Positions 2,698 to 28,847 of a stretch of 36,446 nt of DNA are shown here, piece after piece. Source of the stretch: Dirinaria sp. TL-2023a (taxonomy: Eukaryota); NCBI GenBank assembly GCA_051941275.1, contig JAVEBF010000061.1, positions 1-36,446 of the forward strand, written 5' to 3'. A model generated the notes under the pieces. It searched no databases. It was not told the DNA's origin and saw only the letters and a program-made list of their open reading frames with translations. Both the position numbers and the translations under genes were made by a program. The number at the start of each line of letters is the position of its first letter. Positions within the stretch are counted from its first letter, which is position 1.

Positions 2698-5600
2698 ATG
2701 ACTGAGCAGAGCGGGCGGCATAGCCCAAGCAGGCAGATACATGATCTAGATGATAGTGAGTCCTGAATACCCTACTAGCACGGTTTTCATCAGTCCTTCA
2801 AGGCGTGAATTTCTTCGTTTTCTGCTGTGTCCACAGGCGTTTCATGGATTGACCTTCACTCTCACAGTTCGAAGCGACCTTTTCCGTCGTATCCTTGTCT
2901 GTCTCGCCGAAACCGACAATTTCAGTAAAGCAGCCACTCCAAGCTTCTTTGTAGTCTACGCCCATGATAATGCAAGCGAGGAAAACGTTCGTTTCCTGAT
3001 TGAATGGTTTGGCATCATTCGATCTCGAATGGTTTCTGACAAGCGCCCATTACCGGTTTTGGGGTCCAGAGCAGAAGATTCGGCCAGAAATATCTATTGG
3101 AATCAATCTTGTCTACTACCACACGAGGGTGCTCCATCGAGTGACGACGTAATCACCAGCGTTGATAAGGTTATCCTATGCGCTTCTGAGGTACTGAAGC
3201 GATATTTTGAGCATGAATTCACTCCACCGTACATCCATGGCATCGTGACGGAATTCAATAATAGAGAGTTATTCCAAAAGCCAAATCGCACATTGTTTGA
3301 GAGCCTCAAGGACTTCGTCGAGACGCATCTCCAAAACGACGGATTTCATCATGTTCTCACTGAGCTCGCTTTCCTGAATATTCGAATTTCCTACCTGAAG
3401 CCTCATGGGATCATTCCTCTGGTCCTTAACGGAGATCGCACTGACTACTCGTCGCTTTTTGAAGTGATCGGACTTCAAAAGAGTGATCTAATACTTGAAC
3501 TCAAAGCTCCTATACTGGTTGAGCTGCAGCGACTGTTCTTCAAGCTACTCAAACATGTATATACAGAGCATCATGTTCTCATTGATTTTTTTATGGATTG
3601 CTTCAATACTACAACTAGAAACTTGGCGAACCTCATGCATATGACGGAGTCGCAGCTTAGCAATAAAATCGACTCGGACATTGGCGTAGCACAAGCCAAG
3701 TGGATCAAATTTCAAAACGCACACAGTCGTCATATAGACACCCGCCCAGCAGTCGGAAAACTTGACGAACAATTGATGCAGGTGCTCGGAAAGCTCAGGA
3801 ACCATGATGACGTGCTAGGTTCCATTTATCAGATGGCCAAGGATCGTCAACTGGAATGTGTCCGGAAAAGGTGGAAATTTACCAATCCCAGCGGCAAACG
3901 GATTGTGCTACGTGATAAGATGGAAAACATGATCCGGTGGATCAATACGTATAGGGACTTAGGGCCAGTAGCTACCGAACACCATGCAGCGAGCGCCAGC
4001 TGGCCTTGGGCTGCCGTTCGATATATCCTCGAGACCACAGTGAACGATGACGAGTTGTTTAAAGCAGTGTCAGATAGTCTTGAGACAATTGCAAAAATAA
4101 TCACGAGGCACCGCATGGCCGAAGAGCTACTGATAAGAAGCTCCTGCTCAGATCACGAGACGCAGCTGCTTGAGTCCGCATTAGCTGGTCTGTATATCGA
4201 GATCCTAAGATTTTTAGCCATGGCCGTGGCGTACTTTAAAACCCCCAAATCAAGTAAGAGAACAAATTTCCCCAGGTGATTTGGATTTCGATAAATAACT
4301 ATGCATAGAACGCAGAATCAAAGACCCACTGGTAGCAATGAACGATTATGACCTTCCTAAAGTCTTGCAGAAAGACCACAAAGTCTCTCAACTAACTACA
4401 ATGATCGAAAGACACGCAAAACCACAGGATGAAGTGCCGATCAAAGAGCTACGGCAGCTCATGCAGAGTTCAGAAGCCTTCTTGACCCGCTTGAGCGTTC
4501 AGGAAGAAAAATCAACAAGGGTTATGGAAGCAACCAAGTATCGTGACTTGCTAGTCTGGCTCTCGAACGTCAATTACTCTTGCCACCATCAGTTCCATTC
4601 AGACAGTCGATTGGAAGGGACTGGAGAGTGGCTTTCGGAAAATGATAATTATATCGACTGGAGGTCGTCCAGTATTTCTGCTATCATGATTCTTCATGGA
4701 ATTGTCGGTAGTGGGAAGACGAAAATCGCATCGTGGGTCATTGATTCGTTCATCAACTCTTTGCACAGCAGGATCGAATCCAGCACTCAAGAGACAGCAC
4801 CTATAGCGTACTTCTATTGCAGCAACACTGAGTCCGAGCCTGAACGACGTGACCCTGCAAGTATACTGCGCAGCGTTGTACGCCAAATCACAGTGAATAC
4901 AACTACGACCCGAGTTGATGAATTTAAAGCCCACAGATCCGTTCTCCTAGAATTTGAAAAACGATCGCACCAGTCAAAGAAGAACGGGTTTAGTCCAGAC
5001 AGACTTAGTAACAAGGAGTGCATCAATATCATTGGTCTTGTTGCTGAGACTGAGCCTATTACAATAATCATTGATGCCTTGGATGAGGTTGAGGATGACG
5101 AGCCTCTGCATGAAATGATTCTAGGGCTTGACAATGTTGTCCGCAATGCTGCCAACGTAGTCAAGATCTTCCTTACGAGCCGAAATGGAGGGCCATTATT
5201 CTCGCTTCTTCCCCAGGCGACTAAAATTCGTATCAGCAAAACTGACAACGCAGCGGATATGATAGCTTTCACTCAATGGCAGATCGACAAAGCGGTCAGC
5301 GCGCGTCGGCTGCTCGGTGGCCATCTGGAAGAAGCGACGAAAGCTAAGATTATCGCCGTCCTCACTGCTGGGGCCGGAGAAATGTTTCTCTGGGTCAAGC
5401 TGCAACTTAACCGTATCTGCTGCAGAAAGACTGAGGTTGATGTGCAAGATGCGATCCGGCATCTACCCACAGCATTGGAAGACATATACAACGACGCACT
5501 CGAGCATATCGCCAGTACGGAGTATGGGAAAAGGGCATTTGAGATAGCCCGTTATGCTTTTTTATGGGTGCTCCACGCATGCAGACCACTTTCAATACCA

Positions 5601-8600
5601 GGTCTCCTTCAAGCAGTGTCAATGTCTTTTTCCCAAGAAAGGTTGGCAACGGATCTTACAGTTTTCGAGATCGAGGACTGTTGCCTCTACCTGATTTGTA
5701 TTGATCCCGCGTCCAACATGTTTAGGCCAATTCACCCATCAGTTCAGTTGTTTCTCGCCTCGCGACCAGACTTTGCTAATTTTGAAATCCAATCAATCAT
5801 GGCAAAGGCCACTATCAATAGCTGCTGTCAACTATCTCCAATCGAAGAGCGCCCTGAAGGTAGTCATATCTCAGCTGCCTCAAGCATCAGTTTTTCAACC
5901 TATGCCGTCATGTATTGGCCTTTCCATTGTCAACAAGCGAGCTTGCGGGAAAATACCTCTGAGTTGGGTTCACAAATGATCTCATTCGTCTTTGAAGGCC
6001 CCAGAGACCCCCAGATCAGTATCGAATTCAAGTTTTGGCTCGAAAACACAAAGCGATTAGTACAACGACTTTCTTGGGCCGATCCAATGTTCAAGCGACT
6101 TTGCTCGTTGACAAGCCCAGACAACGACTCGTTGTTCGCCGCGGCAGAATTTGGATTGGGGGACCTTCTCGAGCAGTTGGGCCAGGACCCGATCACAGGG
6201 CACGAGTGTGATCGTAGGAATGACTTGCAACAAACGCCACTGTACCTCGCATCAGTTTCAGGCCATACTAATCTTGCTCGAGTTCTTCTTCAGAAAGGCG
6301 CCAGTGTCGATTTGGCAGGAGGGAAACAAGGCTCACCGGCTCATGCTGCCGCTTTCTATGGCCACAAAGATGTCTGCTTACTTTTGCTTGAACGAGGCGC
6401 GAGCCCTCGACAAACGCCAGATGCTCGCCCTGAGGCTTTTGCTAATGTTGTCGAGGCAGCACTCGCCGGTGGTCATGAAGAGCTTGGAAGAGAAATCTTA
6501 ATCAAAATCGCGCCTACATTGGAAGAGGAGGATCTGAAAACAATCATGAATGAGGCTTGCAGAAGGGGTTATAATCATATTGCTCGCTGGCTGCAGTCGC
6601 AAGTTCCCACACTGGCTCTGTCACCGTTAGTAGAAACGGCTTTGACGAAAGCAGTATGCCATGGGCAAGTTGAGACCATCAAATTCCTTCTCAAAGAAGC
6701 ACACGGAAAATTCGATGTCCTACCTCTCGACACTATTACACTTGCAGCGCTTCATGGGCATGAAAATGTCATTATATATTGTCTCGAACGGGGCTTAGAT
6801 ATCAACCGATTGGGACCATTCGGCTCGCCACTTCGAGTGGCCAGCAGGATGGGACACGACCATATTGTTCGGCTGCTCTTAGACAACGGGGCCAAAGTGG
6901 GTTGTGATCAGCCTCTGCAAGCCGCAGCTTTCTGGGGTCACGTTGAAGTCGTCAAGACTCTTCTTTACATTGGCGGCTTAAGCGCTGACGAAGGCGGAGA
7001 CGAATACGAGCCTCCTCTGACAGTTGCGGCATATAGAGGGCATGTGGACGTTGTCAAAGTTCTTCTAGACGCTGGCGCAGATCCCCGCAAATCGCTGGAC
7101 CCGAAATTCAGGTACGCCAACGCATTTCACGCTGCTGTCGAGGGCGGAAATAATAGCATCGTCGACCTGTTCAATGAGAAAGGGTTCACGCTAGAATATC
7201 GCGTTGAAGCACAGTATGGTCACCGAGCACGGAGTCACGATCTGGACGCTTCAACTTTCCGGAAGCTGAACCTCACGGATATTATGCCCGAGCAGTTAGA
7301 AGCAGAAGGCTCCTTAACCCCAGTGAGACCTACCGGCACCATTCACCAAGCTCCCGTTCAGGAAAAGGGTCCAAACGCCGTAAGTTTGAGACTCTACATG
7401 GACCAAGTGCACAGGATACTTGATAATTTGAGGTTGACAGGAGACGGACATGCTCAGATAATCGGCTTCTTTGCTAGTGCGGTCGAATGCGGAAATTTAA
7501 AGGTTGTCCGGGTGGTAGGCCCTGAAATACAAGAGCAATTGATGTCCCTAAATATTAACAATAGCCAAGACGCATCTAAATGGAAACGCATGGCCCGGGC
7601 TCTTGGTGGTTACCAAGATTGGGAGCCACTGACTGCGGCTGCTTCATATGGTCATCTAGGTTTTGCAGAGTATATTCTGTCGTTGAGAGACAGTGATGCA
7701 TTGATTTCAATGGCTGAGATAGAGAGTTTGCTTTCGGTCCGCTCGAGCACCAATCTCCAAGTTCTTTCTAAAGCTTTGACATATTTAGAAAATCTCTGCG
7801 AGGGGGACGTCGATAAGCACTTGGAAGCTGTGAAGCTCTTGCAATACACAATGCAGACCGCAGCTGGTTTTAGCAGAAAAAGTGGGGTGTTATCCGTTGG
7901 CACTGATAATCCCGAATTGCTAGCTATGTTGCTCGGAAGCCAAGGTGTGACGATACCGACTTCCTCGCCTGAGTCGATCTATCAAGCTTGGGCTATGGGT
8001 CGCGAACATGCTCAAGCGCTGTCTGTTTTATATACCAAGTCGCCCGACAAAGCAGCTCACCTAGCGCAGTGTTTGGTCAAGACTGTGGAACGTGGTCATT
8101 TCCAAAACTTCTTACTTATGATGTGTTGTAGTCCTCCGGACACTGAGAAGGGATTCCTTATTGCCTGTCGTTATGGCCACACCGCTATTGTTGAGTATCT
8201 CATCTTGAAAAGCATGCCAAGTTGGCAAGACCGCTCCAGAACCATGGCCAAAGGTTTGATTCTGGCGTCTCAAAGCGGCCACTCAAACATTGTTAACCTC
8301 GTTCTCACTGGAGGCGCTGACGTCAATTGCGAATTGGAGTATGAAGTAGCGGAAAGAGGTCCCCTTATTGCTACCGATGGATTTGACGAAGCTTTCTACT
8401 GGCAATACAGATATCTCCCGCAAGAACAGAAACCCAATATCTATCAGCGCGCTGATCCCAAGGATACCGATGCGGTTAGGGACTCAGCTGGCGTTGTAAG
8501 TCCTTTAGGCGCTTGTCTTGTAGGCCTTGCTCGCTTTAGCTTAGACCATAATACTTTCAACCACGAAATGGTCAAACAGACTTTGACCCACGAGATCGAC

Positions 8601-11600
8601 GGACCGAGGCGCCTAGCATTCCAGACTAATCATGGCTTTGAACCTTGGCGAAGTCGAGGGTGTGACCAAGAAAAGTGCACAGAAGGTGCAGCTTCGGAAA
8701 ATTTACAAAGAGAAACATTGGGATTACTTCTCGACAAAGGGGCACGAGTCGATCTGCTGTCCAGTAGTTATCTGTCAGACCACCCTTTATTGCTGGCAAT
8801 TAAGTACTGCGGGCCCAAAGTGATAAAACATATCGCGGAGCGTATGAATGCTATCAAGCCAAGCGTTCCTTACGACGAATTGACTGCTTCGATCTTGTGT
8901 CGGCGGTTCAAAAACTTGGAAGCAGCCGAAGAAGTTTCTCAATGCATATCACGACTACGGGCAGAATCTTTGGGAAAACAGAGCGTTTTTCAAATGTTGC
9001 CGAATCTTAATTTGAGATCGTGTGTGCGAGAGCTGATGAGGCAATCCTGCGCGCTGATGATGACACTCCTCTACATCTCTCAATCCATCAAACTTAGACG
9101 CCTTGACCATACCACTGTCAGATCCCATGAAGAGATGCTGTCAGAAGTTCGGTATGAGGCTATGGATCCTTTTTGTGCCCCAGTAGATGGACTGGGAGCT
9201 TTAGTGAGGGAGATCTTGTCAAATCACCAAGAGAGTTTGGATCTAGACGACCAAGGGTTCTTATTTCTACTTGCCGGCATTAGTGGCCGCTCAGCATGGG
9301 TCTCTTGGCTTTCCCGCTATCCAGAACGCTCTCACGATCTCGAACTTTTTTGGCGAAACTACAACCCCACGGAGATCAATCACAGTCCGCCTCCATATCT
9401 TCTAGATTCCCGCATCATTAGTAATCCAGACTTCCAAGAGGGCCGCCCCAATATATCTCCATTAGAGGCGGCGTGTTTCAATGGGCACCTTGAGTTCGTG
9501 GTGGAGCTTTTGCCTGTCTTGCATCACATCTATCCGACCACTGAAACCTGCATCGCACGGCTGGAGAGCGCCCTGTACGCCGCCATTGTAACGGAACACA
9601 GCGAGGTTGCTGCTGCGCTCATACAGAGTGCTTCGCAACTACAGTTTTCGATACAAAGGCTTGACCCAACCATATTTACCCTTGCAGCTAAAGTCCAGTT
9701 GCCCCGGATAGTTGAGCTTCTAATCGAGGCTGGTGTCTATGTAAACTCTGTTGGCCGACCATGCGATGGGTGTGATGAGGCGCCTGCACTTTATTACGCC
9801 TGCACAACGGCGGATCCTAAGATTCCTCAAATGTTGCTTGCCGCTGGCGCTGATGCCACATGGGTGATGCCTCAGGGACCGGATGAGAATGCTCCAGTAT
9901 CAGTATATGATTTTGCTCGGACTCCCTACCGAGGGTTGTCGCGCTTACTGCCCGATATTGTCTTCCATGGGAAAGTGTCCTATAGGATGTCGTGGTCAAC
10001 AGACTTTAGTCACACAAACAGATCGGGCCCTCTCCACATTTCATGCGCATACGGCAATGTTTCTGCATCTCGTGCACTTATTGAGCGTGGTGCAAATCCA
10101 CGGATGGAAAGCACTATTGGAACACCGCTCATTTGTGCCGTTCAGGGAAACAGCTTGGCATGCGTCCGGCTACTGCTCGAGACAATAGACGGCGACGATG
10201 AGGAAGATTTAGGTAAGAGCCTTGACAAAGCCGTTGAAATGGGTGCCTCCGACATAATCGCAGAGCTTTTGTCATGGGGAGCCCCCGTTTTTGGCTGCGC
10301 CGGCAGAAATACACGCAATGCACTTGTTCATGCAGTTGAGTATAGAGATATAGTTTCCTCAGAAAAGGAGATCCGCGAGAGAGTATCAATTACGAAAGCG
10401 TTACTGACTGCGCTAGAGAATATGGAAGATCTGGAAGCTTTGGTTGAAAGCTATGCCGCAACATCGGCTCCCCAACGCGACCCCGTGCAAGTTGCGGCAC
10501 TTAGGGCTATGGAGTTTGGGGACAAAGAGTGTTTTGAGCTCCTAGCCAATTTCCTTCCTGCAGAAATCTCGTACTTCACCGATACCATGCAGCTGCACGC
10601 AGCGTGTTGCGTGGGCTCTTTATCTACAGTTGAGCGGTTAGTTCGTCAAGATATCGATGTGGATGTCCCGGACAGCTACGGCGACCGTCCTCTGCATATT
10701 GCCGCTCATCACCTGCACTACGATATTTTGCAATTCCTCCTCGCAAATGGCGCAGATGTCACGTATAGTAGCAAAAACTTAGGATCCCCCTTGATGACTG
10801 CTATGGAAGGCTGTCTTGCAGAGATGAACCGTTCAATATTTGGCCGCTTACGTGATAGAATCATGGAAGCTGAACTATTGGAACCAGGTCTTCCACCAAA
10901 GACATACTTTGGTCCTGCCAAACTTCATGGTGAAATGGAGAGATACCCTACAATTCACCTGGAGGGTGAGAGAACCGGCAACTGGACAAAAGATGAGATT
11001 GGTAGAATCACCTTCTATATGAAAAGACAGGGGCATACACCGACTTTTCTTCTCCGCACTTTGCAGGTACTTTTCAAGCACGGAGTAGAGGCAAATCCAA
11101 AACCCGGCTACTTTGGCACAGCTCTACAGATAGCTTGTTTCATTAGAAGCGAGACCATCGTAAGACTCCTCCTGGACCAGGGAGCGGATGTCAATGGAAC
11201 CGGCGGCTGGCTTGGGTCGCCGCTTATGGCTGCTATACACGCCGGAAACACAGGCAAGTCGCACAGAATCATCAAGCTACTTCTAGAGAAAGGTGCCGAT
11301 GTTTCATTTCGAACCGAAAGAGGGTGTTCGGTCCTGAATCGCGCCTGTGAACTGACCACTCTGACCAGTATTCGCTTACTTCTCGAGCACGGCGCGGATG
11401 TGAATGAGGGACAAGGAGCGCTCCTGGAGAGAAGATTCGCGTTCGGGCACCCAGGTGTCGCGTGGGCCTTGCTTCGCTACGGCAAGGGACTACGCCTTAA
11501 AAAGGTACATTTGGAAATTGCGAATATCTCACCATGGGGCTATCGAACCTACTTGGGCAAGACGGCTGCTGAGTGGCTCTTAGACTATCGGTACCGCCAT

Positions 11601-11723
11601 CCTGAATTGTGCTGGTCAGACGAAGATCCCAGGCAACTTGAGGAAGCTCTCGATTTTCAAAACTCGTATAAGGATGCCATACAAAAAATTATTAAGTCTT
11701 CGGATTATTGGAAATCGCATTAA
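2698..11723 (+). CDS. Fungal NLR: TIR-like + NACHT_N/Goodbye-type helical region + NACHT NTPase + ankyrin repeats (~2952 aa; exons 2698-2755, 2868-4253, 4309-11723)
   Basis: Introns 2756-2867 (GTGAGT..CAG) and 4254-4308 (GTAAGA..TAG) are both phase 1 and join the ATG at 2698, ORF 2750-4279 and ORF 4338-11723 in frame. Walker A GIVGSGKT (4698-4721), YFYC, Walker B IIIDALDE (5064-5087), IFLTSR, EMFLWV and LPTALEDIY mark the NACHT. Many ankyrin units follow (TPLYLASVSGH, SPLRVASRMGH, PLTVAAYRGH, PLHIAAHHLH, TALQIAC). The upstream helical region carries KRWK..IVLRD..WPWAAVRYIL. Confidence 0.92.
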
Positions 11724-12313: not shown

Positions 12314-13988
12314 TCAGTACACGGGAACTCCTCCACCGTCGGATTCATCCTCGGAATTATCGACAGCTGAAGCGAGACTCGACTCCGGGGGCTCGCAACT
12401 CGATCGCTCCACATCTCCGCCAGACGTCAATTTAGTTTTCTCCAGAAGAAATAAGTCTTCATCTTCTTGAGGCGGAGTGCATATCGCGCGATGCAGATCT
12501 ACTAAAATGTATAATAAGCTATGAAGACCACTAGTTGATACCTCAACTTACGGCCACATGTGTCGGTCGGGAACGGTGCTTTTATATCATCAGCATATAC
12601 TGAAGTGTCCAGGCCCGTAGTCGAGTCAGGATGCGCCCTAAACCCTCGATAGTCTGGTTTAATCTTGTCCAGAACGAACAGACGGATTCCCTGGATCATA
12701 TCGTTTAAGATCTTCTCTTGCTCTTTTACCAATGCCGGCAGATCCTGCTGGATATATGGCGGTTGCCATTGAATATATAAGTTTTCGCTGCAGCCCGACG
12801 TTTGCACCTGCAATGGGTGGGCCTGAAAGTATCGATAGCACAAGAAACAAGCCGGTTTGCTCACGCCAATGTATCGAACCCCGTCCCAGAACGGCAAATT
12901 CTGGCGGTGGAATAGGTCGAGAAGGATTATTTCCGCATGAGTTCTCAGCTTAAATTTCGGGTCCTGGTACTCGTCTCGAATGCGTTTTTCTAGCTGCAGA
13001 TGGAACTTTTCTTCCTGGGATTGCAGCTCTTTCTGGTAGTATTCGCAGACCTGGGGTTCTTTCACCATTCGGTTGATGATACCGTTGATTGACGACTTTC
13101 CCCTATAAGTCGGCGGTGTAAAGTTCAGACGAATTGTCGCGATTTCAATCGAGTATCCCGTAAACAACTGCGGGCAGTGCTTTCCAGCCTCCACTAAAAT
13201 CCACGCAGCTTTCAGGTATGACCCTAGACGGCCGATGTAATGTCGAACACGTGCAAATCGGGCTTCATAAGAAGTGTTCTCTTCGTGTATGCTGCTATTA
13301 TTGGCTCTCTGTTCGACTGCTTTTAAAAACATTGATTTTCTAGCTTCATAGCATAGTCGGCAAAAGTCCAGGATGTTCACGTCTGACTCTGCGATGGATA
13401 AGAGCCAATCTTTCAGATTGTTGGCTTCTGTAATGGAGACAAGTGTTTAATCAGTCAATTGGTGACTTATGGACAAAACTCAGCCTTGTAAAGCAACTAC
13501 GAACCTTCTTCGTTCTGCGTCTCCAATTTTGGGAGGCACGTTTTGATCGCACATTTGACCTTGAATCTATAACGTCGCAGTTTCTCGTCGGCGAACTTCA
13601 TCGCGCTGTCGGAGATTTCGCGTCGCAAAACAGAGACATGCTCATCGCTTGCGTTATAGACTTGACCAAGTCGCTCTAAGATGCTCAAGAGAAATGGCTT
13701 CATTAGCTTGACTTTAGATCCTTTGTGAGTATTCGCGGCCACCCAATAGGTCAAACGAGGACCGTCCTGTATTGCAACCGCGGCCACAGTATCTCCACTA
13801 GGCGAGTAATCGCATATATAGGCAAGCTCGTCAAGGAATCTCTTGCTCAATCTCTTGTCGTTTTCAGACCATGCCTCGTCGGACTTAACATGTCTTCCCT
13901 GAGATTTACCATAAGCCAGTAGGAGTATCAAAGGCTCATAGAATCGATCCCAAAGCTTCTTGTTAACTTGTGGCGGATAAGTGTTCAT
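12314..13988 (-). CDS. OTT_1508-like nucleic acid/nucleotide deaminase-family protein (~515 aa; exons 13988-13505, 13427-12552, 12501-12314)
   Basis: Zn-deaminase motifs RTHAE (HAE at ~12939-12931) and YIGVSKPACFLC; N-terminal RFYEPLILL and FLDELAYICD..GDTVAAVA. Introns 13504-13428 (GTTCGT..CAG) and 12551-12502 (GTAAGT..TAG) keep frame and give an acidic C-terminus ending SEDESDGGGVPVY*. The start codon could lie further upstream. Confidence 0.85.
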
Positions 13989-17451: not shown

Positions 17452-18645
17452 TCAAGACCCTTGGGCAAGCTTTGCGAACACTTTAGCTGGGTACTCCTCG
17501 TCCACCATCGCTTTAGCAACAGCTGTACGCTCATCAAGGTCCTCCTGCGGTAATCCCAGCTTTTCATTGTCCAAACCGCGCGTGCTCTCATAGTCGCCCC
17601 CGCCATTCGGGAAGAATGTTCTCACAAACGACGCCTGCGCGGCTCCCATACGTGCAGACAGAGGGTCCTGCGCTTTCTTCATGGCTTCCATACCCTCCTG
17701 ATAGCGCTCTTTGCTAGGCACCTTCTCGATCGTCCAGTCCGAGTCCTTATCACCCGAGACACGCTTCCAGCTCTCAAACATATCTACCTGACTTATCAAG
17801 AAGCTGGAGATGACGAGAGGCTTGTTGCGCCACGTGTTCATCGTCGGATTCTTGTCATTTTCATCATCAGGCAGCATCTTCAAGCTCAAAAGAGCAGCAA
17901 CGGCGCGTGCACACTGCTCCCAGGTAGTAACATTGATCTTGGTCGTGCCGTCGTCGTACAGAGTGAGTTTCTTACTCCCAAAATCGAACCCAAACCAGAT
18001 CGGGCCCATAGCTAGGCTGTACTCATACCACAGGCTACATATCATGGAGGTCCATGAGCAGCCGGCAGCCTCGATCTCGGCGAGCATGTTTTCGGGGTCG
18101 CCGCTCAACGGAGCTTCTTTCATCAAAGCTTCGTTGGAGTTGTCCAATGAAAAGACGTTGGGCATGATGTGCTTGATCCCGGCTTTGGCAGCTGCCTGGA
18201 CAATCTTAGAATGGACGTCTGGCGTAGCCGTGGCGGGCAGTGTGATGATAAGAAATTGCTGATCTTTCAAGGCTGTGATGACGCTTGACTCGTTGCTGTA
18301 ATCAACTGGGACTGTTCTGCAGCCGGACGGGACCGAGTTTCGACTGTCATGGCGTGTGAGCGCAGTGACTGTGTGCTTTCCGGCTTTGATAAGGGCTTTG
18401 ATGATGTGCTCGCCCATTTGACCGCTAGCCTGTGACTCGGATTAGTATACGGGGATTTCCGTGAAAAATCCTTGAATCAAATCTTTCCAACCTTAAAGCA
18501 AGCAATGACCGGTTCGACATATTCGATGAGAGCATGTACAGAATATCGCGTAAAGAAAGATAGTTGAACCTACTCCAATGACGGCAACTCGCTCGACGCG
18601 ATTGACGAAGCCCGCAGGCATATCCTTTGCATAGCTCGCAGCCAT
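17452..18645 (-). CDS. CipA-like / NmrA (isoflavone reductase)-family oxidoreductase, 349 aa, 2 exons
   Basis: Exon 1 (18645-18574) encodes MAASYAKDMPAGFVNRVERVAVIG. Intron 18573-18430 (GTAGGT..CAG) is followed by ASGQMG, completing the GxxGxxG motif. Downstream motifs HTVTALTR, VDY, WYEYSL and FGFDF..LYDDG are typical of fungal CipA-like proteins. Confidence 0.88.
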
Positions 18646-26422: not shown

Positions 26423-28129
26423 TCAATTTTTCACAGCTTTGACATTGAACGGATTAGGGGTGAACGTCCCCTGAGGATCAGCTAGGTATCGTTGCTTCCC
26501 GATACGCTCGTACTTCGCTTGGTCCTCGTAATAGAATGGCCAGCTCTTGTCCATATCCCAATCGCCGTACGAGCCCCAGAGCACACGCTTATCCTGCTTA
26601 CTGAAAGGACTGTCCTCTCCGTTCATGAGCTTGTCGTTGACAGCTTGCCAGTCATTCGCAAGCTTTTTGCCTTTCTCGCCCTCCTGGTAGAAGCAGTCCA
26701 TGGTCTGGCAAATCGTCGAGTCTCGCCAGCTGTAGGCCGTGCCATTGTCGCGGTTGACATAAAATTGAGAATGATTACCGCCAAAGTTTTGAATCTGGAC
26801 GGAGAGGAAGCAATTCTCCCACAATGCGAGGTTGGTCAATGACGGAGCCAAGACCTGATGGATTCGATCCGCGACTTGGTCGGCCCATTTGTCCTGCACC
26901 AGCGTCGTCGAATTGGTCAAGTAGGTGCGCTTCTCGTAAGGATGGTCGAACTCGCGCGGTCTCGTGAAAAGCCACTCGCCTGTCATCTTGGACATGGGCT
27001 CAACAGGCTCCGCGGTATGTATACACCAGTATTTGAGGAAATGGTCAAGGTTGCGGAATCTTTGAAACCATGCATCCACCTTGTCGGTATACTTGTCGTC
27101 TGCATTCATCGGAACCCACTGCGCATATAGGACGATTGATGCGGGCCATTTGGTGTCACCGTTCACACCCACTGCATCGGCAATGCGCTTGAGAATTTCC
27201 CCCAGATTTTCTTTCAATTCGGGCATCAAGTGGAACATGGGGAAGGAGGAACTGAGTACACTGACGCACAAATCAAAATTTCGGGGAAATTCTGGATCGT
27301 CGGCCATCTCCGCCACTTCGTTGAGAAGCGATTTCACCACCTTTTCGCTGTAAAGCCAGATTCCTTTGAAGCCATGCGGCCTGGCATTGGCTTCCGGGAA
27401 GTCATGATCCGCATCACGGTGAACCTCGATGGTGTAATGGGTGATGACGCCGAAGTTACCAGGACTGCCCCCCAAGATGGCATAGAATAGGTCTGGATTG
27501 GACTTTTTGGTGACCTCTTGGATTTCGCCGTCGTGGTTGATCATTCTGATGCCCCAGATATGGTCTCCCAGCAGGCCGAAGCTGCGGCCGAGTTGGCCGT
27601 ATCCGCCTGTTTGGCCATGTCCGCCGATTCGTACATCGGTGCACTGTCCGTGAGGCACAAAAAATTGGTGGTCTCGAAGAAACTGGTTGAATTCGCCAAG
27701 GCTATGGCTCACACTGACGTAAACGAGAGGCCTGTTATTGTCTGGAGGTGGCAGTTCTGGTAGAACTACGAGATCTTGCGGGCCTCTGTATGTGTATTTG
27801 AGTTTGAGCTGAATGCCCTTTCCGTGCGTAGAGCAGGCGCCACTGTATTGGTGGCCACCGCTCATGATCGAGACTGGGTAGCCATTATCCTTTGCGTACT
27901 TGATCGCTCTCTGGATATCATCGTCGTTTTGAGGAATCGCGATCAGGCCTGGGAACATGTCATGGTCGATCTGGTGGCTGGATGTCGCATATTCCACATT
28001 ATTGGCATCGTATTGTTTTCTTGGAATGGGGTCCGTGGTAAAAGGATACTGAAGTCCTTTGAAGTCCTGAATTGTCTCCATTATTTGGTGGTGTGAAGCT
28101 GGGAGAGGTGCTGATCCGTTTGTCGGCAT
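26423..28129 (-). CDS. FAD-binding PCMH / berberine-bridge-enzyme-like oxidoreductase (568 aa, intronless)
   Basis: SGGHQYSG (covalent-FAD His), PHGQCTDVRIGGHGQTGGYG (second covalent Cys), DLFYAILGGSPGNFGVIT, and C-terminal YY..KYERI....YLADPQGTF. Confidence 0.9.
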   Translation of the reverse strand: MPTNGSAPLPASHHQIMETIQDFKGLQYPFTTDPIPRKQYDANNVEYATSSHQIDHDMFPGLIAIPQNDDDIQRAIKYAKDNGYPVSIMSGGHQYSGACSTHGKGIQLKLKYTYRGPQDLVVLPELPPPDNNRPLVYVSVSHSLGEFNQFLRDHQFFVPHGQCTDVRIGGHGQTGGYGQLGRSFGLLGDHIWGIRMINHDGEIQEVTKKSNPDLFYAILGGSPGNFGVITHYTIEVHRDADHDFPEANARPHGFKGIWLYSEKVVKSLLNEVAEMADDPEFPRNFDLCVSVLSSSFPMFHLMPELKENLGEILKRIADAVGVNGDTKWPASIVLYAQWVPMNADDKYTDKVDAWFQRFRNLDHFLKYWCIHTAEPVEPMSKMTGEWLFTRPREFDHPYEKRTYLTNSTTLVQDKWADQVADRIHQVLAPSLTNLALWENCFLSVQIQNFGGNHSQFYVNRDNGTAYSWRDSTICQTMDCFYQEGEKGKKLANDWQAVNDKLMNGEDSPFSKQDKRVLWGSYGDWDMDKSWPFYYEDQAKYERIGKQRYLADPQGTFTPNPFNVKAVKN

Positions 28130-28847
28130 CAGATAGGGTATGCGACATGATCGCGACTATATATGCGTTCATCCCGTTCGATGTCGCATGCTCAATGAGA
28201 CTACAGACGGTCAGCCCATGCATTACAAGCCACGATTTTTTCACGCATGCTCGACAAAGGAGAGCTTTGGAAGATCAGGGGCACGTCAAAGTCGACGGAG
28301 CCACCGATTGGCCGCAGGAGGCTTAGCTAAGCCCCAGCTGAAGGCAGTTTTGCCGGAGCTGAGCAGCGCCACGTCGCCTACTTCAGCTGAGTCTGGAGAA
28401 GGTTGCATGTAGCAATTCTCGTTGGCTGATTCGCGAATCGCGATTCGCAAGGCCAAATGAAAGATGACTATTCGCCCTGTCACTCCATGAAAGGTGTGAT
28501 GCATTCGGGGAATACGAGCACGGCACGAGCCGACAAGACCAAGTACCATAAGATATCGATTGCCAATCGAGTGGCAGCTTCGAAACATCACACAGCCCAT
28601 CACGTCGTAGCGCCTCAAACACGCATGTCAGAGACAATATGATATAATGATATACTGTATAGGAGATTCTCTAGCCTGGCCTTTGACTGTCGCTGGGAGT
28701 TCAATGCTCGACGAATTGACGTCAGTGATACGTCCGAATCGAGTTCTCGACGAGTGCGGAATTGATCGGAGACGGAGATGCCCATTGGTTTCTCTTCGTA
28801 CCTACAGTAGCGTCGAGCGTGTTCGCCGGGACAGCAATTTGGTTCTC

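Follow-up and report, generated by a model that had tools for sequence, protein, structure and literature searches.

The stretch of DNA analysed here, referred to as the window, is the 36,446-nucleotide contig JAVEBF010000061.1 of Dirinaria sp. TL-2023a (assembly GCA_051941275.1), and its positions 2699-11723 (+) are best explained as the gene of one NLR of approximately 2,950 amino acids (aa), composed of a SEFIR-like N-terminus, a DUF7708 domain, a NACHT NTPase and a very long ankyrin-repeat sensor of about 2000 aa. The N-terminal domain is supported as belonging to the TIR/SEFIR (STIR) superfamily and as being SEFIR-like, and its family preserves a glutamate, Glu165, that may be the catalytic residue of an effector acting on nicotinamide adenine dinucleotide (NAD+).

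An earlier note on this DNA, made from the letters and their open reading frames (ORFs), had proposed a cryptic TIR-like domain at the N-terminus of the NLR on the basis of a series of short motifs. In the translation of window positions 2870-3700 (P0002, whose residue numbers are used throughout) all of these motifs are present, in the order and at the coordinates proposed: FFVVYAHD at residues 26-33 (2945-2968), NVRFLIEWF at 39-47, MVSD at 54-57, SVDKVILCASEVLKRY at 97-112, HHVLTELAF at 160-168 and GIIPLVLNG at 180-188 (ending at 3433), and the glutamate placed at 3362-3364 is Glu165, encoded by a gag codon. An AlphaFold2 model built on a 54-row alignment (A1) has a mean predicted local distance difference test score (pLDDT) of 91.8 and a predicted template modelling score of 0.90. 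It consists of helix 2-14, strand 26-29, helix 36-49, strand 54-56, helices 69-82, strand 100-105, helix 107-114, helices 118-135 and 139-151, helix 161-175, strand 181-185, helix 190-200 and more helices, and thus follows the secondary-structure order that had been read from the motifs. The fold is flavodoxin-like alpha/beta, with strands A-E alternating with helices, and the model superposes on solved TIR and SEFIR domains (Table 1), so that the TIR-like sandwich on which the proposal depended is what the prediction returns. Two long insertions had also been claimed and both exist, one as residues 58-96 between strands B and C and the other as helices 118-135 and 139-151 ahead of the glutamate helix; the first, however, is no plain insertion, because the strongly conserved I75-L-x-N-Q79-x-C-L-L-P84 lies inside it.

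Profile comparisons were made with bacterial SEFIR domains, from 13 of 400 genomes searched, and with TIR_2 domains, from 36 of 151 genomes, and both sets exclude loci from two genomes flagged as unpublished. The family matches the SEFIR profile at 97-98% against 0.2% for the reversed template, and thus the motif pattern goes beyond chance and there is profile-level homology to a member family of STIR. Since its SEFIR scores exceed its TIR_2 scores, the family is a remote relative that lies nearer to SEFIR than to TIR_2. The motifs agree as well, with FxVYAHDN corresponding to VFISYSHDS in strand A and VILCxSExLxxY to VLVVCtE.Y, of the C-x-E-x-Y type, in strand C. Of the description as a cryptic TIR-like domain, the TIR/SEFIR fold is therefore retained, whereas the domain is nearer to SEFIR (95.8%) than to TIR (56.9%) and, having already been published as TIR-like, is less cryptic than supposed. 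Compared with bacterial SEFIR (PF08357; B. cereus 5y8e/5y8f), the window family is not recognised by the Pfam SEFIR model, is eukaryotic and NLR-linked, and is about 60 residues longer, owing to the two-helix insert 115-157 and to an extended B-C region that has a conserved motif peculiar to it.

The family-SEFIR alignments pair T164-E165 with the T-E of the bacterial SEFIR motif G-V-G-T-E, whose glutamate is found in 10 of 13 untruncated rows and in the solved B. cereus SEFIR. The SEFIR glutamate column pairs in turn with the near-invariant glutamate of TIR_2 (SEFIR versus TIR_2, 99.3%), and the TIR_2 profile puts its glutamate on the E of W-T-N-Y-E in 'NAD(+) hydrolase AbTIR', which we take to be the catalytic WxxxE glutamate. 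This chain of alignments, from the family through SEFIR and TIR_2 to AbTir, supports Glu165 as the probable counterpart of the AbTir catalytic glutamate. The animal SEFIR adaptors Act1/TRAF3IP2, IL-17RA and IL-17RB are known as scaffolds, not enzymes, and in Act1 (chain 9ot1_E) the SEFIR-profile alignments find a histidine where the window family has Glu165. The difference between the glutamate of bacterial SEFIR 5y8e (in G-V-G-T-E) and the histidine of Act1 9ot1_E could separate enzymatic from scaffold SEFIR domains.

The glutamate is also conserved in homologs, as the proposal required. When all 1.84 billion representatives of a set of 50%-identity clusters were searched with HMMER, the family came to 255 representatives at an expectation value (E) <=1e-3, 187 at E<=1e-10 and 46 at E<=1e-30. 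Conservation was counted over the query and 155 matched stretches of 150 proteins listed among the 255, using the rows with a residue at the given position. Glu165 is present in 147 of 148 rows, the sole exception being a lysine, and is invariant in the 54 rows of A1. The other conserved blocks are F27-x-V-Y30-A-H32-[DEN]-N-A of strand A (F27 132/132, Y30 132/133, H32 131/133), S56-D57 (D57 138/138), I75-L-x-N-Q79-x-C-L-L-P84 (Q79 145/145), V-D-K-V-x-x-C-x-S106-E-x-L-x-x-Y112 (S106 150/151, Y112 147/149), G-F-H160-H161-V-L-T164-E165-x-A-F-L-x-I-R172 (H160 and T164 each 146/148, R172 143/148) and H-G-I-I-P183-x-x-L186 (P183 129/148). All eleven of Y30, H32, D57, Q79, S106, Y112, H160, H161, T164, E165 and R172 are kept in 111 of the 125 rows covering them, and mean column conservation is 0.30 in the insert 115-157 versus 0.71-0.78 in the core blocks. 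In relatives the domain stands ahead of NACHT or NB-ARC modules with ANK, HEAT, WD40 or TPR repeats.

We consider it fairly probable that the domain is an NLR-activated effector that cleaves NAD+ or makes a signal, given the fold, the invariant glutamate and its polar neighbours, the histidine of Act1 and the attachment of the domain to a NACHT NTPase that oligomerises. Recognition of a ligand by the ankyrin repeats would lead to oligomerisation of the NACHT module, as extrapolated from NLR families, and this would cluster the N-terminal STIR domains, which together would form an active site along the sheet's C-terminal edge. The site would be lined by Y30/H32, S56/D57, S106, H160/H161/T164 and Glu165, with Glu165 as the catalytic residue; NAD+ would be cleaved or an NAD-derived signal made, and the end point would be regulated cell death. 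An enzyme acting on another substrate, a nucleotide or nucleic acid, in the manner of a nucleoside 2'-deoxyribosyltransferase or hydrolase or of a 2',3'-cyclic nucleoside monophosphate synthetase, seems distinctly unlikely to us. The domain might also be a non-enzymatic adaptor like the SEFIR domains of IL-17R/Act1 or the TIR domain of MyD88, performing homotypic recruitment after NACHT oligomerisation with stand-alone members as its partners. We judge this unlikely, since Act1 has His where both the family and bacterial SEFIR carry Glu, and the invariant polar residues H32, D57, Q79, S106, H160, H161, T164, E165 and R172 sit at strand ends in a pattern that resembles an active site, not an interface. 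Many of the short matches, moreover, come from contigs of a few kilobases and may be fragments. According to the available text of a preprint, a bacterial SEFIR defence protein depletes NAD+ to ADP-ribose and nicotinamide through its N-terminal SEFIR domain (10.1101/2024.02.11.579819), which sets a precedent for the enzymatic reading and likewise argues against a pure adaptor; the single-protein bacterial SEFIR system is described, also in preprint form, as a defence against phage phi29.

Several observations weigh against the enzymatic interpretation. Foldseek found no match of the model in the PDB at E<=1e-3; its top rows were S-adenosylhomocysteine hydrolases (E 0.12) and the TIR rows were weak (AbTir, probability 0.89, template modelling score 0.60 by target length). 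The direct sequence link to the NAD+-cleaving TIRs (SARM1, AbTir, SPARTA TIR-APAZ, plant TNL TIRs and Thoeris ThsB) is weak as well, with TIR_2 at 59% and 57%, and here the TIR W...E helix falls on residues 142-152 and not on E165; unlike those TIRs, the family is without the WxxxE tryptophan and has H-H-V-L-T-E instead. The TIR_2 score rises alike, to 93.3%, whether the insert 115-157 or the Glu helix 153-176 is removed, and therefore sequence alone cannot fix which of the two is helix C. A pocket in which Glu165 meets Y30/H32, S56/D57, S106 and H160/H161 is suggested by topology, because in a parallel alpha/beta sheet all of these residues are found where a strand ends at its C-terminus or where a helix starts. 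The exon 1, intron 1 and start codon of the gene model described below are putative and unconfirmed, and the table of a 2025 review has 'ND' under biochemistry and structure for the HET/TIR domains of fungi. As for helix C, we prefer helix 161-175, because a five-residue loop leads from it straight into strand D, because it is the conserved one of the two while residues 142-152 are variable, and because the stronger SEFIR alignment puts the glutamate there.

None of the standard models detects the domain, which the earlier note had suspected. Pfam gives no TIR, TIR_2 or SEFIR match (PF01582, PF13676, PF08357) for P0001 or P0002 even at E<=1, nor one to HET, and thus the domain is hidden from such models. 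SEFIR is absent from the 25 most-matched Pfam families listed, of 62 matched by 54 members, and TIR_2 matches 2 of the 54 with a best E of 0.022, below significance. PADLOC found no TIR or Thoeris models on the 54 members, a search of PDB sequences gave no match with the protein and only CD9 (E 1.2) with the family profile, and a profile word-search returned family members only, with no bridge to annotated TIR or SEFIR proteins. ESM Atlas features reach 0.82-0.84 against TIR/SEFIR clusters, under the 0.9 level, and are taken as a lead only. A Pfam RGS match on the domain (E 0.0016, under the cut-off) was dismissed as chance on helical sequence. One further possibility is that the domain is a divergent branch of the fungal HET cell-death domain (PF06985) and not SEFIR; in the consulted literature HET is itself considered to be remotely related to TIR and to possess a conserved glutamate. 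We find this very improbable, as the hidden Markov model (HMM) search of P0001 and P0002 gave no HET match at E<=1, no HET profile-profile comparison having been made, and the listing of the 25 families most often matched by the 54 members does not include HET.

The fold had been assigned in print before, and the glutamate is a modest and testable addition to that assignment. According to the searchable text of Wojciechowski et al. (2022; PMC9815663), 29 N-termini of Pezizomycotina NLRs form a cluster without annotation, with PQE30996 as representative and a median length of 389 aa; this cluster was called 'TIR-like' and partly resembles the SEFIR family (HHblits 90%). Its domain is joined there to NACHT with ankyrin, HEAT or WD40 repeats, or to NB-ARC-TPR, with relatives standing alone in Rhizophagus and on NACHT-WD40/HEAT proteins in Mycoavidus (PMC9815663). 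The window domain belongs to this family, as indicated by P0013 (47% identity, E 7.6e-46), a Hypoxylon sp. EC38 protein of 870 aa that matches cluster member OTA56891, and by seven more matches that share lengths with cluster members (P0011, P0024, P0051, P0069, P0074, P0085 and P0106). Like the cluster, going by that text, the window family has the same partners (NACHT with ANK, HEAT or WD40, and NB-ARC-TPR) and occurs in Mycoavidus; unlike in the cluster, an additional DUF7708 separates the domain of the window protein from NACHT, and therefore the NACHT of this protein starts near residue 585, not at approximately 370-390. The DUF7708 layout is also seen in P0003 and P0219, while the long ankyrin-type proteins P0009, P0012 and P0016 have NPHP3_N directly after the domain, at residues 369-382. 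Novelty is thus limited, because the window holds a member with slightly different architecture of a family already flagged as TIR-like, although with 255 representatives against 29 sequences this family is much larger than reported. In the searchable text of PMC9815663 the word 'glutamate' occurs once, for HET only, and 'catalytic' and 'NAD' occur nowhere; 'glutamate' is likewise absent from the text of its S1. A TIR atlas issued as a preprint in 2026 speaks, in its available text, of 'almost zero fungal TIRs' and of no fungal sequences in InterPro's STIR clan.

In the window, the domain and the NACHT module lie in two separate open frames on the + strand, 2750-4279 and 4299-11723 (2,474 aa), a separation that the earlier note had seen in its ORF track. 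The proposed exons and introns (Table 1) were read from the sequence, and the alternative to exon 1 is an unspliced start at the in-frame ATG 2750. The ortholog P0003 (84% identical) aligns to the 2750 ORF from residue 30 on only, which fits an intron there. RNA contigs from three RNA runs of one lichen-metagenome sample are approximately 95-96% identical to 3726-4632, the region they cover, and so are informative on intron 2 and not on the N-terminal domain or intron 1. In one contig of run X3, position 4253 is followed immediately by 4309, with GT..AG, in exact agreement with the predicted boundaries of intron 2, and a second contig ends at 4253. This support for intron 2 is modest, because the shorter side of the joint has 21 letters only; the RNA runs may contain DNA as well. 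The contigs and the joint together indicate that a close relative of the gene, spliced at intron 2, is present in the RNA library, and the window holds a clean, intact and apparently expressed example of the domain family. Since Pfam finds DUF7708, NPHP3_N and ankyrin repeats in succession downstream of the domain, one NLR is encoded; with a central NACHT-type P-loop NTPase and subsequent repeats on one chain with the effector domain, it belongs to the NACHT clade of the NLR/STAND NTPases. The family HMM found no second copy of the domain in the window.

Relatives of the domain also occur in bacteria. A scan of 185,579 prokaryotic species genomes for the helix-C motif yielded 149 relatives; of the best 80, Mycoavidus cysteinexigens assemblies account for 79 and Candidatus Glomeribacter gigasporarum for the remaining one (L003). 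At the endosymbiont loci, 81-82 of 82 copies preserve the residues of the motif that lie beyond the scanned pattern, and the Pfam SEFIR model has no match in two endosymbiont genomes rich in domain copies. The domain is heavily amplified in these bacterial endosymbionts of Mucoromycota. The searchable text of PMC9815663 names Mycoavidus only, whereas the copy in Candidatus Glomeribacter gigasporarum was found here.

The neighbouring genes are of several kinds. Approximately 800 bp past the NLR stop, and convergent with the NLR, lies an open frame (12505-13446, -) with an OTT_1508-like deaminase domain (PF14441, E 1.6e-18). This neighbour of the NLR, a predicted nucleotide or nucleic-acid deaminase, may be a further gene of a conflict system. 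The NLR is closely preceded, on its own strand, by a 494-aa open frame (827-2311, +) that has several hydrophobic stretches and for which Pfam gave nothing at E<=0.001. An NmrA-like NAD(P)-binding protein (17455-18441, -), the C-terminal part of a cytochrome P450 (23445-24080, -) and a FAD_binding_4 oxidase (26426-28156, -) are encoded by other open frames, which are ordinary fungal metabolic genes.

Table 1. Features of the NLR gene and its N-terminal domain in the window, followed by the structural matches (with three values each) and the profile comparisons (score, E and aligned columns).
Feature	Position	Strand	Details
Whole conserved N-terminal domain, P0002 residues 2-252	2873..3625	+	N-terminal helix, STIR core, C-terminal helices; family conservation, pLDDT 91.8
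TIR/SEFIR-fold core, residues 24-234	2939..3571	+	structural matches cover model residues 20-234 and 15-234
Strand A and loop FFVVYAHDNA, residues 26-35	2945..2974	+	aligns with bacterial SEFIR VFISYSHDS
S56-D57, end of strand B	3035..3040	+	aligns with LD of bacterial SEFIR and D of TIR_2
Helix motif I75-L-x-N-Q79-x-C-L-L-P84	3092..3121	+	without SEFIR or TIR_2 profile counterpart; unaligned by hhalign
Strand C and short helix, VDKVILCASEVLKRY, residues 98-112	3161..3205	+	strand 100-105, helix 107-114
Family-specific two-helix insert, residues 115-157	3212..3340	+	helices 118-135 and 139-151; poorly conserved; gapped versus SEFIR
Helix C region, residues 158-175, G-F-H-H-V-L-T-E165-L-A-F-L-x-I-R172	3341..3394	+	helix 161-175; Glu165 codon 3362-3364
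Strand D, HGIIPLVLNG, residues 179-188	3404..3433	+	strand 181-185
Putative exon 1	2699..2756	+	ATG, 19 codons and 1 base; read from sequence
Putative intron 1	2757..2867	+	111 nt, GTGAGT...CAG, frame kept; inferred from sequence reading
Exon 2	2868-4253	+	sequence reading
Intron 2	4254-4308	+	55 nt, GTAAGA...TAG, frame kept; links domain ORF to NACHT ORF
Exon 3	4309-11723	+	sequence reading; stop at 11721-11723
DUF7708 (PF24809) linker domain, interrupted by intron 2	3938..4253	+	Pfam E 2.3e-9; P0001 residues 357-463; profile positions 9-107 of 146
NACHT-type P-loop NTPase module	4617..5183	+	NPHP3_N PF24883, E 8.1e-29, residues 103-291 of the 4311-7300 translation; weak NACHT match
Ankyrin-repeat region	6132..10790	+	Ank_2 E 4.4e-39 and 1.9e-58; extends to near the C-terminus; frame open to 11721-11723
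Structural match 9ot1_E			Act1/TRAF3IP2; 12.5; 3.4; 151 (177)
Structural match 7fcc_A			IL-1RAcPb TIR; 11.4; 3.5; 140 (146)
Structural match 9hq0_A			SARM1 TIR; 11.1; 3.0; 136 (140)
Structural match 7beq_A			MyD88 TIR; 11.0; 3.8; 135 (138)
Structural match 5y8f_B			prokaryotic SEFIR; 10.9; 3.0; 139 (144)
Structural match 4c6t_B			RPS4 TIR; 10.9; 3.2; 136 (166)
Family versus SEFIR (local, hhalign)			97.0%; E 1.1e-10; 182 columns
Family versus SEFIR (global, hhalign)			98.0%; E 1.1e-12; 197 columns
Family versus SEFIR (separate tool run)			95.8%; E 6.7e-9; 147 columns
Family versus reversed SEFIR (control)			0.2%; E 0.33; 81 columns
Family versus TIR_2			59.3%; E 9.1e-5; 138 columns
Family versus TIR_2 (separate tool run)			56.9%; E 1.1e-4; 65 columns
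SEFIR versus TIR_2			99.3%; E 1.6e-20; 139 columns

Fungal NLRs are numerous and the action of their effector domains is mostly unknown. The finding mainly confirms and sharpens known work, and what is gained here is a specific, testable set of residues led by Glu165 together with a quantitative link to bacterial SEFIR. A bolder view, which we offer tentatively, is that the domain may be the first SEFIR-type domain of eukaryotes with catalytic activity and may represent a large class of Pezizomycotina NLR effectors unseen by Pfam and InterPro, in which Glu165 would destroy NAD+ or make an NAD-derived signal upon oligomerisation. On this view the module would also have passed between fungi and the Burkholderia-related endosymbionts of Mucoromycota (Mycoavidus, Ca. 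Glomeribacter), in which it would have multiplied massively. If this is true, bacterial SEFIR anti-phage immunity would be linked directly to the control of cell death in fungi. If the domain is an NADase, NLR-triggered loss of NAD+ would extend from plants, animals and bacteria to the filamentous fungi, and its route there would be a SEFIR-type domain and not a canonical TIR.

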